Positions 29,078 to 54,100 of a DNA stretch of 64,000 nucleotides are shown here, one piece after another. The translations under genes were made by a program, and so were the position numbers. Numbering within the stretch: the stretch's first letter is position 1; each line of letters begins with the position of its first letter. The stretch is taken from the IMG/VR virus record IMGVR_UViG_3300025162_001855; one strand, given 5' to 3'. The stretch comes from a virus (taxonomy: Duplodnaviria; Heunggongvirae; Uroviricota; Caudoviricetes). The notes under the pieces were generated by a model. That model worked only from the letters and a program-made list of their open reading frames with translations. It ran no database searches and was not told the DNA's origin.

Positions 29078-29152
29078 ATGATACGGGATTTGGATCCAAT
29101 TTGCAACATCTAAATTCCCAATGATTTCAACAACTTATAAGTCATTGATTTT
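29078..29152 (-). promoter_or_regulatory. conserved promoter cassette, copy 1
   Basis: TTGCAA, 17-nt spacer, TATCAT, preceded by the conserved upstream element AATCAATGACTTATAAGTTGTTGAAATCATTG. Confidence 0.5.
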
Positions 29153-30029
29153 CAAGGAAACTTCGTATCACTGTAATTCGTCCCTGTTCGGACAACTTTG
29201 CAAACTCGCCCTTCCAGGGTTCAATCCAATCTAACAGCGGGTAATATTCCTCGTCAATCGTCTTGCGAAAATCCGGAGTCTGTATACGTTCGAGGAACTT
29301 CTCTTCCTTCATGCGCCCCAGGAACTTGGTCACCAAATAATATGGCGACTTGATCTTGAGTGCAATGTCCTTGCCGTATGCAACAAACCCTTCGTGCTTG
29401 CAAGTCTTGGCCTCCTGCACTACATCGGAGAAGCGACATACCTTCCACTCGGGGCGCAGGTATCCTTGCGCCTTGGCCACAGCGTCTAGAATTTCTTCAC
29501 TGAGCATCTTGCCAGTAGAAATTACTCGGGCTCCGATCAAATACGCTCCTAAGTTTTCCTTGATGATGTGTGGATCCGATTCGTCGCAGATCTCAAACAA
29601 CCAAGTCGTCGGAAATCCAAAGTGATGGGCTGGTACGAAACACTTGAGGTGCTTCTCAACCATTACAGCAAAATCCGAATCCAATGAACCAGTTGTCGAA
29701 TAAATGATATCATCTCGGGTACGGTCCCAAGTAATGGCACCCATGAACCCATTTACCTTCCGTACAGCAATAACCATTTCGTCACGCGGGATATCAACAC
29801 CGCGCTCAAAGCGATTGTATATCTTCTGGAATGGACGCACTACTACGTTCCAATCCGCGTCCACAACCAATCCACGACATTCTTCAAGAAGGTCGTTCCA
29901 CAGTGCATCGTAGAATACCTTGCGGGTATACTTGATGACATACAATCCCGGATACTTTGTTGACTCGCGACGAGTTATCAACTTTGGGTTGGCATCAATA
30001 AATTCGCGTAACTGTGCGATGTCAATCAT
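29142..30029 (-). CDS. T4 RnlA-like RNA ligase 1
   Basis: N-terminal similarity to the recalled T4 Rnl1 sequence (LEECRGLVVD...RPFQKIYN versus ALECRGIMFE...RPMEKFFN); candidate nucleotidylation lysine in RKVNGF; directly upstream of and overlapping the kinase gene. Confidence 0.5.
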   Translation of the reverse strand: MIDIAQLREFIDANPKLITRRESTKYPGLYVIKYTRKVFYDALWNDLLEECRGLVVDADWNVVVRPFQKIYNRFERGVDIPRDEMVIAVRKVNGFMGAITWDRTRDDIIYSTTGSLDSDFAVMVEKHLKCFVPAHHFGFPTTWLFEICDESDPHIIKENLGAYLIGARVISTGKMLSEEILDAVAKAQGYLRPEWKVCRFSDVVQEAKTCKHEGFVAYGKDIALKIKSPYYLVTKFLGRMKEEKFLERIQTPDFRKTIDEEYYPLLDWIEPWKGEFAKLSEQGRITVIRSFLENQ

Positions 30030-30466
30030 GGATGATACTCGAAGTGAATGTTTTCATCTGGTGTGTACTTTGTTGCGATGGTCGAGTTATCCTCGAACCG
30101 ATCCCTCATCTGATCCAGCTTATCCTGTGGCACGTTGTGAACGTTGTCCCACTTGCCGTTGCACTGTATCACTCGAATATTATAGTCGTTACAGAAGGCC
30201 TTGAGAATGTAATTCTGCATCTCCCAGAGCTTAGTGAAGGTGTTGGAGACAACTACATCTTCTCCACGGTTAATGCATTGTGCCACGGTCTCAAAGCACC
30301 ACCGGTGCGCTGCGCCGAGCTGCTTCGGATCAAAGTGGTATTCGTTGCTCTTCATAAAATACATATCGGCTTCGACATGCTCTATTCCGGCAACATGTGC
30401 AATCTTGCGAGCAACCGTGCTCTTGCCCGAGCCCGGCAGTCCACGAATGATAAAAAGTGTCGGCAT
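30026..30466 (-). CDS. P-loop polynucleotide 5'-kinase-like protein (kinase domain only)
   Basis: Walker A GLPGSGKST in a 146-aa ORF adjacent to the RnlA-like gene; no HAD phosphatase domain. Confidence 0.5.
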   Translation of the reverse strand: MPTLFIIRGLPGSGKSTVARKIAHVAGIEHVEADMYFMKSNEYHFDPKQLGAAHRWCFETVAQCINRGEDVVVSNTFTKLWEMQNYILKAFCNDYNIRVIQCNGKWDNVHNVPQDKLDQMRDRFEDNSTIATKYTPDENIHFEYHP

Positions 30467-30468
30467 AA

Positions 30469-30780
30469 TTATTTCCAGTAGAGTGAATATTTTGTTGCTA
30501 GTGCCGGTGTCGACTGATATGAGCCAACCGGACGGGGTCCTAAATAGATCACCTTGATGCCGAAGGGCCGCACAGCCTTTCGCACGCGATCAACTGTATC
30601 CATTGGGAGCCACTTGGCAATCGAGTTCTCATTGTCCGGAGACTTGTGCTTCAATAGAAGATCATAAATCTCGGGATCCGAAACCCAAATGGACCACAGC
30701 TCGCCCATGCGCTGATCAATTGTTTTGTCTTTCCAACCCATATCAATAGTATAGCAAATCACAGAGCAAAAAGCAAGCAC
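30469..30780 (-). CDS. hypothetical protein
   Basis: ORF track only. Confidence 0.35.
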   Translation of the reverse strand: MLAFCSVICYTIDMGWKDKTIDQRMGELWSIWVSDPEIYDLLLKHKSPDNENSIAKWLPMDTVDRVRKAVRPFGIKVIYLGPRPVGSYQSTPALATKYSLYWK

Positions 30781-30804
30781 AATTTACCCAATCAAATCAA
30801 TGGG

Positions 30805-30996
30805 CTACAAACGAATTACATCCTCTTTATTGGCGTAAAAATTTGTATTTTGGAAGCGGAAATGTAGTTGATCTCCCTCGTATCCAACCAGTTGAGCTTT
30901 GTCGAAGCTCAGGTAATCCGGAACGGTAACAGTTGAGTACCGGTTGGCATTTTGGATTGTGATCCTTGTGCCAGGCTGAATGGAATACAATGTCAT
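30805..30996 (-). CDS. small hypothetical protein
   Basis: ORF track only. Confidence 0.3.
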   Translation of the reverse strand: MTLYSIQPGTRITIQNANRYSTVTVPDYLSFDKAQLVGYEGDQLHFRFQNTNFYANKEDVIRL

Positions 30997-31004
30997 ACAG
31001 TCTC

Positions 31005-52425: not shown

Positions 52426-52859
52426 TCCAGCATCACTCTTGCAGCGGCTCCACGCAACAATGCATCAGCAATAATTGCATAGGCTTGGCGCTTGATGAGT
52501 GGTGTGGAGAAAATCAACAGGTCATCCCAACGGCCGAGTTCGGCAACGTTGTTCAGTAGCTTGGTCTTGGTAAGTGCATCTGGGTGCAGCTTTTCAAGGT
52601 GCAGGAGAATGTCACGGAATAGCTGACGCTCACCAGCACCACCCCGGACGTCGCGGGTCCACTGGGCGATGCGGATGGCTAGATCCTGATTCTCCTGATA
52701 TGCACGCTCAAAGAGCGGGGTGATATCCTTACCACGGGATGCACCGATCTTGTAGAACAGATCGGTGATTGCCTGCATGGTGGACACTTGCGCCTTCATA
52801 CCATTTTCGGTACGGGACTCGACTGGAATGGTCAAAACGGACTTTACGAATGTGTTCAT
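52356..52859 (-). CDS. N-terminal part of the putative split vWA/TROVE-like gene
   Basis: 167-aa helical ORF; its 3' end overlaps the plus-strand HNH gene by 70 nt. Confidence 0.4.
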   Translation of the reverse strand: MNTFVKSVLTIPVESRTENGMKAQVSTMQAITDLFYKIGASRGKDITPLFERAYQENQDLAIRIAQWTRDVRGGAGERQLFRDILLHLEKLHPDALTKTKLLNNVAELGRWDDLLIFSTPLIKRQAYAIIADALLRGAAARVMLDQIDSMSESACEAELVKLEQRSK

Positions 52860-52970
52860 CTCTTCTCCTTTAACGGGTTAGCATTTTTGCTGCTATGTGC
52901 ATTTGATTGCTGAAACTAACCCAAAATCTACAAATGCGTAGTCAATTATATATCCTGCTCATATGTCTTG

Positions 52971-53318
52971 TCAAGAATTTTGTAATGCGTAAAACAGAAC
53001 ATCTGGGTCATCAATTTTGATAATGTCCCGGGCGGGGCGCAGTACCGTAATCGGTGTACTGATGTGGTCCCACGTATATCCTTTTGGAGCCGTTGGATCC
53101 AAAATCTTAACTGCTTTACGGTGCTTGTTCTTTGTATATACCGATACACGAACCTGCTTTGGGGTCATCTTCATAACCTGACCAATCACCAACGCATTTC
53201 GGTGGTGCGTTACTACTTGATCGTTGATCTCGAGTAACTTGCCTAGTTTATCCTTATAGAGATTCTCTGTGCTCATAAGCCACCCAATTACGTACCGGTA
53301 CCAACGGGGCCCATGCAA
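52971..53318 (-). CDS. hypothetical protein; paralog of 45173-45466
   Basis: Shared blocks VVTHHRNALVIGQV and DPDVLFYALQNS. Confidence 0.4.
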   Translation of the reverse strand: MHGPRWYRYVIGWLMSTENLYKDKLGKLLEINDQVVTHHRNALVIGQVMKMTPKQVRVSVYTKNKHRKAVKILDPTAPKGYTWDHISTPITVLRPARDIIKIDDPDVLFYALQNS

Positions 53319-53614
53319 CCACTATAAAATTGCATGGCCTTATCCCGAATGTTCTGATCCTTAATATCCCAAGCCGCTTCGACAATTTTTGCTAGCATCT
53401 TTCGCTCTTCCTGGGTAGCATTACCATTGGCAATTGCTTTGTATGCAAATACATCGAATGCTTCCTTTGATGGAGCAGTGTGTGCAAACACCCCAAACAA
53501 CGCAAGGCGCACAGAGAGGTCGGCACAAAACGATGCCTGGGTAGCATCAACTCGGTCTCCGGCAAATGCTACCGAGGACGCCATCATCATAATCACAGCA
53601 ATCAATATCTTCAT
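53288..53614 (-). CDS. secreted small protein
   Basis: Signal peptide MKILIAVIMMMASSVAFAG. Confidence 0.4.
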   Translation of the reverse strand: MKILIAVIMMMASSVAFAGDRVDATQASFCADLSVRLALFGVFAHTAPSKEAFDVFAYKAIANGNATQEERKMLAKIVEAAWDIKDQNIRDKAMQFYSGCMGPVGTGT

Positions 53615-53623
53615 ATTGTTTCC

Positions 53624-53950
53624 TTAATGTTTAACTCGATAAATTACCGCAGTCCCAGTGGTAACGCGCTCGATACCATGCTTCGCGGCCCATGCTTCAA
53701 CTTCCTTGACAGCCGAGCTCACACGATCTCGAACCGTTGGCTTCATCACCTTGACTGCTGCAAACTTCTCACGATAGTTAGCAAACACTCGAGCCGAATA
53801 AGCACCACTCACCTTGGAGAGCAGTTCCTGGACAAACCTTTGTTCATCCTCGGAATAGAGCTTTCGATTCTCGGTGCTCTTGCGCTGCGCATCCTCGGCA
53901 GCAACCCACTTGGGAAGTGATGTTTCGTCGTTTTCAATATCTCTATACAT
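53624..53950 (-). CDS. hypothetical protein; downstream of promoter cassette copy 4
   Basis: ORF track; promoter about 58 nt upstream. Confidence 0.4.
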   Translation of the reverse strand: MYRDIENDETSLPKWVAAEDAQRKSTENRKLYSEDEQRFVQELLSKVSGAYSARVFANYREKFAAVKVMKPTVRDRVSSAVKEVEAWAAKHGIERVTTGTAVIYRVKH

Positions 53951-54007
53951 ATAAACCTCTGCAAATTACCTTGTTTAATAAGCCGTTATGTCAGCGCTTA
54001 TATGTAT

Positions 54008-54100
54008 ATATTACACTCTAATACAGGAAATGTCAAGTTTGGGCAACCACTAAATTACCAATGATTTCAATGACTTATAAGTCGTTGATTTATTTACGGT
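54008..54100 (-). promoter_or_regulatory. conserved promoter cassette, copy 4
   Basis: TTGACA, 17-nt spacer, TAATAT, preceded by AATCAACGACTTATAAGTCATTGAAATCATTGGTAATTTAGTGG. Confidence 0.45.

Follow-up and report, generated by a model that had tools for sequence, protein, structure and literature searches.

Putative movable early-promoter cassettes headed by a helically phased upstream element in an uncultured T4-related jumbo phage

Introduction

The 64,000-nt stretch of tailed-phage DNA analyzed here (IMG/VR record IMGVR_UViG_3300025162_001855, Caudoviricetes; hereafter the window) carries on its minus strand a dispersed family of similar repeats, in each of which a short upstream element is followed by a near-consensus promoter. 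The reading that seems most reasonable to us, with a probability of roughly 0.55, is that these repeats are movable early-promoter cassettes headed by a phased, orientation-independent upstream element that most likely docks a protein helping RNA polymerase. The window is part of a larger phage genome, and the cassette counts given below for this phage refer to the window.

The Cassette Family

The block AATCAAnGACTTAyAAGTCATTGAAAwCATTG occurs on the minus strand at 29150-29119 (2 mismatches), 43950-43919 (0), 45173-45142 (1) and 54090-54059 (0), as an earlier note on this DNA had reported, and its chance expectation is 0, with no match in 100 dinucleotide-preserving shuffles. These four sites make up the sole long dispersed repeat of the window other than the tRNA genes (family D3 of the repeat search, ~100 nt). 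Homology among the copies runs on past the promoter and leader up to the ATG, over ~105-115 nt, and in the alignment it can be followed through promoter and leader in copies 1-3. The same note counted four copies in all, to which a half-site scan and a profile search add a fifth at 57072-56985 on the minus strand, with the promoter-proximal arm only; the nhmmer E-values across the five copies range from 3e-28 to 1e-21. A possible sixth, partial copy at 12010-11962 is a marginal match (E 0.006). At 12005-11977 (minus strand) TTGCAT-17-TATAAT is followed by ACGCGAAC, which resembles the promoter part of a cassette and lies inside the 3' end of an ORF (11925..12548), just upstream of tRNA-Met 11934-11859.

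All five cassettes lie on the minus strand. Cassette 1 (c29k, 29044..29150, E 3e-28) runs from the stop codon of RNA ligase 1 (Rnl1; TGA 29144-29142), which falls inside its element, to ATG 29046, which opens a 110-aa ORFan; the element (29127..29150) is AATCAATGACTTA overlapping the inverted arm TAAGTTGTTGA with zero loop, and the promoter, TTGCAA-17-TATCAT (29106-29078), stands 20 nt past it. Cassette 2 (c43k, 43845..43950, E 1.8e-27) has the element AATCAAAGACTTA / CAAGTCATTGA (43927..43950) and the promoter TTGCAA-17-TATTAT (43906-43878), and ends at ATG 43847 of an 83-aa ORFan; here the upstream 86-aa gene stops at 43963, 13 nt before the element. Cassette 3 (c45k, 45066..45173, E 3.3e-28) extends from the stop codon of a 97-aa gene (45175-45173) to ATG 45068 of a 155-aa ORF, with the element AATCAACGACCTA / CAAGTCATTGA (45150..45173), the left arm of which has one change, and the promoter TTGCAA-17-TAATAT (45129-45101), as read off the sequence. 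Cassette 4 (c54k, 53948..54090, E 2.6e-22) overlaps the stop codon of a PspC-domain gene (54092-54090), carries the element AATCAACGACTTA / TAAGTCATTGA (54067..54090) and reaches ATG 53950 of a 108-aa ORFan; within 54008..54046 it retains a decayed ancestral promoter (TTGCCC-17-TATTAG, 54046-54018) and, 10 nt downstream, has a new TTGACA-17-TAATAT (54036-54008), which puts the element 30 nt from the -35 predicted to be active. Cassette 5 (c57k, 56983..57072, E 1.4e-21) consists of the single arm TAAGTCGTTGAT (57072-57061), whose TAA (57072-57070) is the stop codon of a 61-aa gene (57070..57255), then a 20-nt spacer, TTGATT-17-TATACT (57041-57013), a leader ACGAGCAT..GTAAGGAAAAG and ATG 56985.

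Every copy keeps a promoter spacer of 17 nt and matches the consensus hexamers at 9-10 of 12 positions, by sequence match only, in agreement with the hexamers and spacing first noted for four of them. The description of the repeats as promoter cassettes gains support from c43k, in which a 1-nt shift of GGATCC within the spacer is compensated such that the spacer stays at 17 nt. The start codons of copies 1-4 sit 30-57 nt past the promoter, within the 30-60 nt first described. The sequence TTAGTTG, which had been placed 10-20 nt before the -35, directly adjoins the -35 hexamer in copies 1-3, where exactly 20 nt separate the repeat from the -35. These 20-nt spacers are ~65% A+T in c29k and c43k, the two counted by hand, vs. 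~55% for the window, and in relatives they consist of phased A/T tracts.

The inverted repeat of the first four copies was previously given as GACTT-NN-AAGTC. That palindrome is present exactly in 2 of the 4 (c29k reads AAGTT and c45k reads GACCT), and the true repeat is a longer one of 22 nt, TCAAnGACTTAyAAGTCnTTGA, in which there is always a central mismatch or wobble. The identity between cassettes is mosaic, with upstream blocks 77-97% identical (c43k/c45k 93-97%) and the parts from -35 to ATG only 39-71%. The conserved leader GAACATAGGGYAA shows no enrichment elsewhere in the window.

Cassettes 1-3 also have the palindrome TTGGATCCAA in the promoter spacer (29091-29100, 43892-43899, 45113-45122), of which c43k keeps GGATCC only, and c29k and c43k have a second palindrome, CGTATnATACG, over the -10 (29076-29086, reading CGTATCATACG in c29k, and 43873-43887, with 7-bp arms in c43k). 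It is possible that these palindromes are operator sites for shut-off.

Helical Phasing of the Upstream Element

We scanned a viral sequence collection twice, once with each orientation of the arm, requiring only the arm and TTGAC-N18-TATAAT and leaving the distance between them free over 15-45 nt. Each orientation returned at least 120 loci; the site counts are lower bounds, and de-duplication removed near-identical spacers only. With the orientation TAAGTCNTTGA, at least 83 distinct sites fall into groups at 19-23 nt (at least 37), 29-33 nt (at least 27) and 40-44 nt (at least 15), with peaks at 20-22, 30-31 and 41-42 nt and, among the matches listed, none at 15-18, 24-28 or 37-39 nt. With the orientation TCAANGACTTA, at least 87 distinct sites peak at 16-17 nt (at least 36 at 15-18 nt) and at 26 nt (at least 10), with none at 19-22 nt and broader groups near 28-33 and 39-41 nt, again among the matches listed. 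With the arm scrambled at constant composition, the scan yielded 35 loci and 10 distinct sites, which show a flat distribution and no phasing. The reverse-complemented arm was discarded as a control since it proved to be real signal, and the scrambled arm was used as the null. DNA fetched earlier contains 47 distinct arm sites whose promoter scores at least 9/12, and at 23 of them the -35 lies at 19-22 nt, vs. 8% at random positions. In all, the motif is placed by hundreds of uncultured phages at one, two or three turns of the helix ahead of strong promoters of host type.

The two scans also define the motif. Positions left unconstrained by the search are kept as AAA 5' of ATCAA in both orientation sets, so the motif is an asymmetric 15-mer, (A)AAATCAAnGACTTA, and the constant part of the cassette head is this single oriented motif of 13-15 bp. 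Because the 15-mer leaves 16-17 nt to the -35 in both orientations, the site would be centered at about -59 (~-66 to -52), or one or two helical turns farther upstream, with the extra turns supplied by added A/T-tract units. Positions that differ by whole helical turns, with empty valleys between the peaks, are what is expected of a class I-type activator site, and such phased distances from the -35 are as a protein docking site predicts. These data are best read as pointing to an upstream promoter element that acts at the DNA level from around -59, -70 or -80. The upstream binding site proposed in the earlier note thus stands insofar as both free-distance scans find it to be a DNA-level site phased to the -35; its unit is a single site rather than a palindromic operator.

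Known sites of this kind include those of CRP at -61.5, -71.5 and -82.5, Fis at rrnB P1 and phi29 p4 at -82. The element is similar to class I activator sites and UP elements in that it is centered near -59, -70 or -80 in helical-turn steps, tolerates either orientation and lies just upstream of an A/T-rich, UP-like stretch, and it differs in that the motif resembles none of the CRP, Fis or phi29 p4 sites. Since the promoters are already near-consensus, the effect of the element may be on competitive strength and not that of an on/off switch.

One explanation does without any additional protein. The motif and the phased A/T tracts could together form a curved, UP-like region touched by the C-terminal domains of the RNA polymerase alpha subunits, possibly in a phage-modified state (T4 Alt and Mod ADP-ribosylate alpha). 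It would account for spacers built of phased A/T tracts in ~10.5-nt units and for the location at ~-66 to -52, which overlaps or adjoins the distal UP-subsite region, and it agrees with an element that is phage-specific. The core ATCAAnGACTTA, however, is neither A/T-tract-like nor similar to the UP consensus, and the invariant central G, A and C suggest base-specific recognition; we regard this explanation as quite unlikely.

The element is specific to phages. A far larger collection of bacterial genomes gave 39 matches in unrelated taxa, mostly on contigs of metagenome-assembled genomes, vs. ~8 estimated by chance, and these bacterial matches show no taxon signal from which a host might be inferred. 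At a number of loci (L007, L019, L038, L052, L070, L077, L168 at 912-975, L380, L453 and L460) two to three copies of the 13-mer lie upstream of one promoter in direct or mixed orientation, and in L168 two copies are 47 nt apart, so that the element may act in arrays.

A Single Site Rather Than a Palindrome

Four of the window cassettes have two overlapping inverted copies of the motif (a zero-loop palindrome), one per orientation, with the proximal copy in the main 20-nt class, and the fifth has a single copy. A two-arm scan of the collection found ~20 distinct loci in which the arms are followed by 20-21 or 29-31 nt and then a strong promoter, with loops of 0-13 nt. In an arm-anchored survey ~12 of 34 exact-arm promoters have one arm only, and in the free-distance scan the second arm is absent from 79 of 83 sites and present in 4, among the matches listed. 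The inverted repeat, then, is found in 4 of the 5 window copies, is absent from c57k and most family members and is strong in some relatives. We take it that the palindrome is not the functional unit and that the second arm is dispensable.

These observations bear directly on the model of the earlier note, a binding site for a dedicated regulator from phage or host, considered here as a palindromic operator at which a dimer would turn scattered genes on or off. Such a model would explain why both arms are conserved in sequence in the four window copies, and it is compatible with helical phasing at the DNA level and with loops that cluster at 0-3 or 9-11 nt, which place the arm centers about one or two helical turns apart. 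Against it, the motif lacks symmetry, its A-tract being confined to one side, a single arm is the usual state beyond the window phage, and the variation of the arm spacing from 0 to 13 nt disfavors a rigid dimeric operator. A palindromic operator with two half-sites at fixed spacing was accordingly set aside, given this spacing and the single half-sites in c57k, L030, L168, L089-L092 and 79 of the 83 scan sites. The genes downstream of the cassettes are unrelated, mostly small ORFans that share neither function nor family (7 of 10 downstream proteins tested have no PHROG family), and no candidate regulator was identified; nothing found here demonstrates the dedicated regulator or the co-regulated regulon that had been suggested. 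We consider a dimeric operator improbable.

Relation to Promoter-Early Stem-Loops

The closest described counterparts are the promoter-early stem-loops (PeSLs) of the T4-type phages RB49/phi1, T4/PST and KVP40/nt-1 (Arbiol et al., 2010, PMC2839356; Comeau et al., 2014, PMC4122927). A PeSL consists of a stem-loop, an AT-rich region, a sigma70-like promoter, a Shine-Dalgarno (SD) sequence and an ATG and is found among the ORFans of hyperplastic regions; both promoter and terminator activity have been measured for PeSLs, and their copies recombine with one another (PMC2839356; PMC4122927). The cassettes present an inverted repeat, an AT-rich stretch, -35/17 nt/-10 and SD in the same order, in numerous similar copies scattered among the small ORFans of a phage related to T4, some of them half copies or degraded and some at indels between related genomes. 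The window pattern TTGCAA-17-TAWWAT fits the KVP40/nt-1 consensus TTGYVH-N17-TAWWAT, and the cassettes likewise show placement from stop codon to ATG, a sigma70-like promoter with a ~17-nt spacer, AT-rich DNA upstream and multiple copies among small ORFs. Association with an indel was found in one case (c29k vs. L001, described below).

The differences lie in the element. PeSL stem-loops are G/C-rich (GGGG..CCCC or A3-4G3..C3T3-4), variable in sequence and terminating, whereas the window arm is an A/T-rich 13-15-mer of fixed sequence that is usually single in the family, occurs in either orientation and is helically phased; its predicted hairpin in the window is weak and has no U-tract. No Rfam family matches the element, and a search of the literature by sequence strings found no description of it. 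We therefore describe the cassette as a PeSL-like, putatively mobile early-promoter unit whose phased upstream element appears to be new to Rfam and the searchable literature.

It is also important to consider a strict PeSL, in which the inverted repeat would act mainly as an RNA stem-loop that terminates or attenuates upstream transcription and insulates promoter-ORF modules, with its sequence conserved through descent and gene conversion. The elements directly follow stop codons, in keeping with the published PeSL anatomy and its measured terminator activity, and the three substitutions in c29k preserve sense-strand pairing through G.U wobbles. Many relatives have A-runs and T-runs bordering the arm pair, which folds at -18 to -22 kcal/mol (z of -3.7 to -4.3) in the manner of a bidirectional terminator. 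The window hairpins, on the other hand, are mismatched at the center, reach only ~-5 to -6 kcal/mol and run on into AAA(A/T)C in place of a U-tract; the strand preference is inconsistent, c29k pairing better on the sense strand and c45k and c54k on the antisense strand; stem mismatches in the arm-anchored survey are uncompensated; and one arm only is present in c57k, in about one third of the related copies and in 79 of 83 scan sites. A terminator moreover gives no reason for ~10.4-nt phasing to the -35, nor for the use of a single copy in either orientation. A strict PeSL is in our view unlikely.

Two related candidates were rejected. Selection at the RNA level as the main constraint does not agree with the inconsistent strand preference, the uncompensated mismatches and the frequency of single arms. 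For an intrinsic terminator, the stems have 3-4 G-C pairs of 9-11, a central mismatch and AAA(A/T)C on the sense strand, and the terminator scan flags only the antisense strands of c45k and c54k.

Relatives and Module Exchange

The relative L001 has 4 cassette copies, one of them at the orthologous site after Rnl1, and synteny between L001 and the window breaks at c29k. In L001 the order is Rnl1, cassette and a gene of 200 aa, while in the window it is Rnl1, c29k, four extra GC-richer ORFs and a 198-aa gene (27361..27957; 70% identity). This is the single breakpoint at a cassette that was examined. The four small ORFs (110, 89, 84 and 64 aa; GC 0.51-0.56; 27972..29046, minus strand) are missing at the orthologous position of L001, and the cassette-bounded rIIA-rIIB-ATPase block of L001 is in turn missing at the c29k position of the window. 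At this breakpoint the element is ~80% conserved and the rest of the cassette is unrelated.

Within the window, the direct repeats c45k and c43k lie 1223 nt apart on either side of a four-ORF module (43963..45068, minus strand; GC up to 0.57), which is a candidate for excision. The regions 42000-43200 and 44400-44800, corresponding to the modules downstream of c43k and c45k, have a GC content of 0.53-0.64, and this excess over the window mean of ~0.45 suggests a foreign origin. The copies are similar enough that recombination could use them as patches of homology, with insertion, loss or exchange of gene modules as the outcome, as in PeSLs. Taken together, the copies appear to behave as duplicated, mosaic, PeSL-like mobile modules at breakpoints of gene content. 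The earlier note had held that a mobile repeat unrelated to expression would speak against its proposal; mobility of this kind is indeed suggested, and it would coexist with a role in expression.

Related loci show how freely the element varies around its promoter. The cassette most similar to that of the window is found in L030 (a 357-kb viral contig, 3618-12040), with five cassettes in 13 kb, of which 1 has both arms, 2 the left only and 2 the right only. In the right-arm-only copies the TAA of the arm doubles as the upstream stop codon, and the -10 and leader are nearly identical across the cassettes (TATAATaagaacatagggYaaac). L168, whose Ro-like protein is 70% identical, has right-arm-only copies 20 nt from the -35, and the orthologous promoters of L089-L092 have the proximal arm only. 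Loci fetched by their ATPase gene and without reference to the repeat always have a strong promoter, and the element is present in one sub-clade only. No motif was found in 40 kb around the marker ATPase gene of phage PA5oct, comparison of the c54k region with L168 and L172 gave no useful collinearity past the Ro-like gene, and the exact cassette pattern had 0 matches in the viral, metagenome and genome collections.

The same data could be read as a recombination site, that is, as the junction of mobile modules used by a site-specific recombinase, a homing-type enzyme or homologous recombination, with no role in transcription. The break of synteny at an element that is itself conserved while the remainder of the cassette is unrelated, the mosaic copies, the direct repeats around the GC-rich module and the half-elements that start exactly at stop codons are all consistent with this possibility, which the PeSL authors raised as well. 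A recombination site, however, would need no fixed helical phase to the -35 in both orientations, its arm spacing would be expected to vary less if it resembled the core sites of tyrosine recombinases, and none of the window cassettes has a recombinase gene linked to it. Of the alternatives considered, we hold this one to be the least probable.

Candidate Binding Partner

If the element docks a protein, the best candidate appears to be the host integration host factor (IHF), the alternative being a phage-delivered factor. The IHF core consensus is WATCAANNNNTTR (PMC8942017). Exact matches to this core are found at 29150-29138, 43950-43938 and 54090-54078 on the minus strand and at 57060-57072 on the plus strand, and c45k has one mismatch; the window as a whole contains 8 matches vs. 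~4 expected in total, and 4 of the 8 are inside cassettes. Positions that complete the core are frequent in the collection scans, where 74 of 83 sites read TTGAT in one orientation set and 67 of 87 are preceded by AA in the other (among the matches listed). The A/T-rich tract that accompanies IHF sites is also present 5' of the IHF-like core, as AAA before ATCAA.

IHF sites lie upstream of the phage early promoters Mu Pe and lambda pL. The element shares with those sites the 13-bp core WATCAANNNNTTR with an A-rich 5' flank, a position tens of bp upstream of a sigma70 promoter, dependence on the helical face and association with a phage early promoter. It differs in that the NNNN of the core is fixed here as nGAC, which IHF does not need, that the A-tract abuts ATCAA and that the motif is rare in bacterial genomes. 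The RIP/RIB (BIME-1) elements of E. coli, extragenic palindromes with an IHF site at operon ends, are likewise repeated extragenic elements at gene 3' ends that combine inverted repeats with an IHF-type core. There a pair of REP palindromes encloses the IHF site, which has no link to a promoter, whereas here the IHF-like core is the arm itself and is phased to the promoter. For control of Mu Pe by IHF, the precedent is one cited in the reference list of PMC3820752.

Discussion

In the mechanism we propose, each repeat would be a movable early-promoter cassette of ~105-115 nt that bridges one gene's stop codon and the start codon of the gene that follows, most often a small ORFan. It would comprise, in order, the 13-15-bp element (A)AAATCAAnGACTTA, a 20-nt A/T-tract spacer, a sigma70-type promoter (TTGCAA/TTGACA, 17 nt, TAnnAT) and a leader of ~25 nt with a Shine-Dalgarno sequence. 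Early transcription would begin ~7 nt past the -10, through host RNA polymerase carrying its primary sigma factor. The element would act as double-stranded DNA at ~-66 to -52, or ~10 or 21 bp farther upstream in other phages, functional in either orientation and always on the same helix face as the promoter, by docking a DNA-bending or activating protein that strengthens or tunes the binding of RNA polymerase. In transcripts with two arms a hairpin could form as well; it is strong in certain relatives, weak in the window, and would be at most a secondary insulator.

Several points weigh against this interpretation. The element looks accessory, as most orthologous promoters of the clade-marker ATPase gene lack it, and the strongly folding, terminator-like pairs of arms in many relatives belong on the same side of the balance. 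Matches to the sigma70-like consensus are not enriched across the window and the cassette promoters are consensus matches only, so that the cassettes are distinctive as a sequence family and not as promoter matches. The matches in the collection may stem largely from one broad phage clade, in which case the phasing could partly reflect ancestry and the ~10.5-nt units of the A-tract spacers and not a requirement of the motif. As to the partner, the resemblance to IHF was spotted after the fact and the host may lack IHF, and the invariance of GAC within the NNNN of the IHF core together with the rarity of the motif in bacterial genomes suggests a partner more specific than IHF.

A broader proposal, which we put forward only tentatively, is that AAATCAAnGACTTA may be an undescribed, phage-specific upstream promoter element through which early promoters in a very large clade of uncultured phages, T4-related ones and others, attract either an architectural protein of the host (IHF or one like it) or a factor delivered by the virion. 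The element would act from ~-59, -70 or -80 in either orientation and would also mark the junctions of module exchange.

Genomic Context

The window holds 42 tRNA genes, nearly all of its genes are on the minus strand, and the five cassettes fall inside 28 kb of small same-strand ORFs. Window proteins recur on metagenomic contigs of 270-333 kb (the 270-kb one being ERZ1426660). Megablast found no close relative among annotated phages, and every protein is <50-60% identical; for the NrdC.10-like AAA ATPase used as clade marker, the nearest cultured phage is PA5oct at 45% identity. Relatives encode rIIA/rIIB-like proteins (L001, Rnl1 65% identical) and the NrdC.10-like ATPase. Based on the rIIA/rIIB genes in L001, this ATPase, the lack of a close annotated phage and the 270-333-kb contigs, the source of the window is an uncultured T4-related jumbo phage of ~270-333 kb with no close cultured relative.

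The tRNA array (901-22069, minus strand) covers nearly all anticodon families. Three more tRNA-like 3' halves (392-420, 8196-8224 and 20130-20158; repeat family D14) are absent from the ARAGORN calls; they may be tRNAs that the program missed or that have decayed. A 707-nt gap just upstream of the array (23355-22649, minus strand) contains three tandem near-consensus promoters of the TTGACA...TATAAT types without the upstream element, and these probably drive the array. The accessory genes of the window encode NAMPT, an NMNAT-Nudix protein, RNA ligases 1 and 2 (Rnl1 and Rnl2), a Ro60-like protein and a DenV-like protein; Rnl1, Rnl2 and the DenV-like gene are accessory genes of T4 type. RNA-repair genes (Rnl2, Rnl1 and an AAA_33 kinase, a PNK3P/HAD phosphatase and a split Ro60-like DUF2828 protein) and NAD-salvage genes (NAMPT, NMNAT-Nudix) at 24096-25148, 29142-30466, 50123-52859 and 36477-39253 share the window with the tRNA array.

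Two further promoter-like sites were seen. A perfect TTGACA-18-TATAAT at 59412-59383 (minus strand) has its -35 within the 17-nt palindrome TTGACACCCTGTGTCAA, which might be an operator or a hairpin over the promoter. The intergenic gap at 30826-30742 (minus strand) has TGCTTGCTTTTTGC ~12-15 nt before TATACT with no -35, an arrangement that we take to resemble a T4 MotA-box middle promoter. Two paralogous phrog_11975 genes of unassigned function lie on opposite strands (22891-24099, plus; 60047-60967, minus), and a 68-nt repeat of 71% identity (61974-62041 / 62869-62936) is shared by two adjoining ORFs, which suggests local gene duplication.

Implications

More generally, the cassettes illustrate that an inverted duplicate of a promoter element can mimic an operator or a terminator without necessarily being either. 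If the interpretation given here is true, the motif would provide a sequence tag for early promoters and module boundaries in metagenomic phage genomes, and, should a host factor such as IHF prove to be the partner, a way to approach host dependence. If it is a docking site, the element would add a defined part, with a sequence, a position and a phasing rule, to the loosely defined concept of the PeSL, and it would represent a simple, portable booster with which many uncultured phages compete for the RNA polymerase of the host during the opening minutes of infection.

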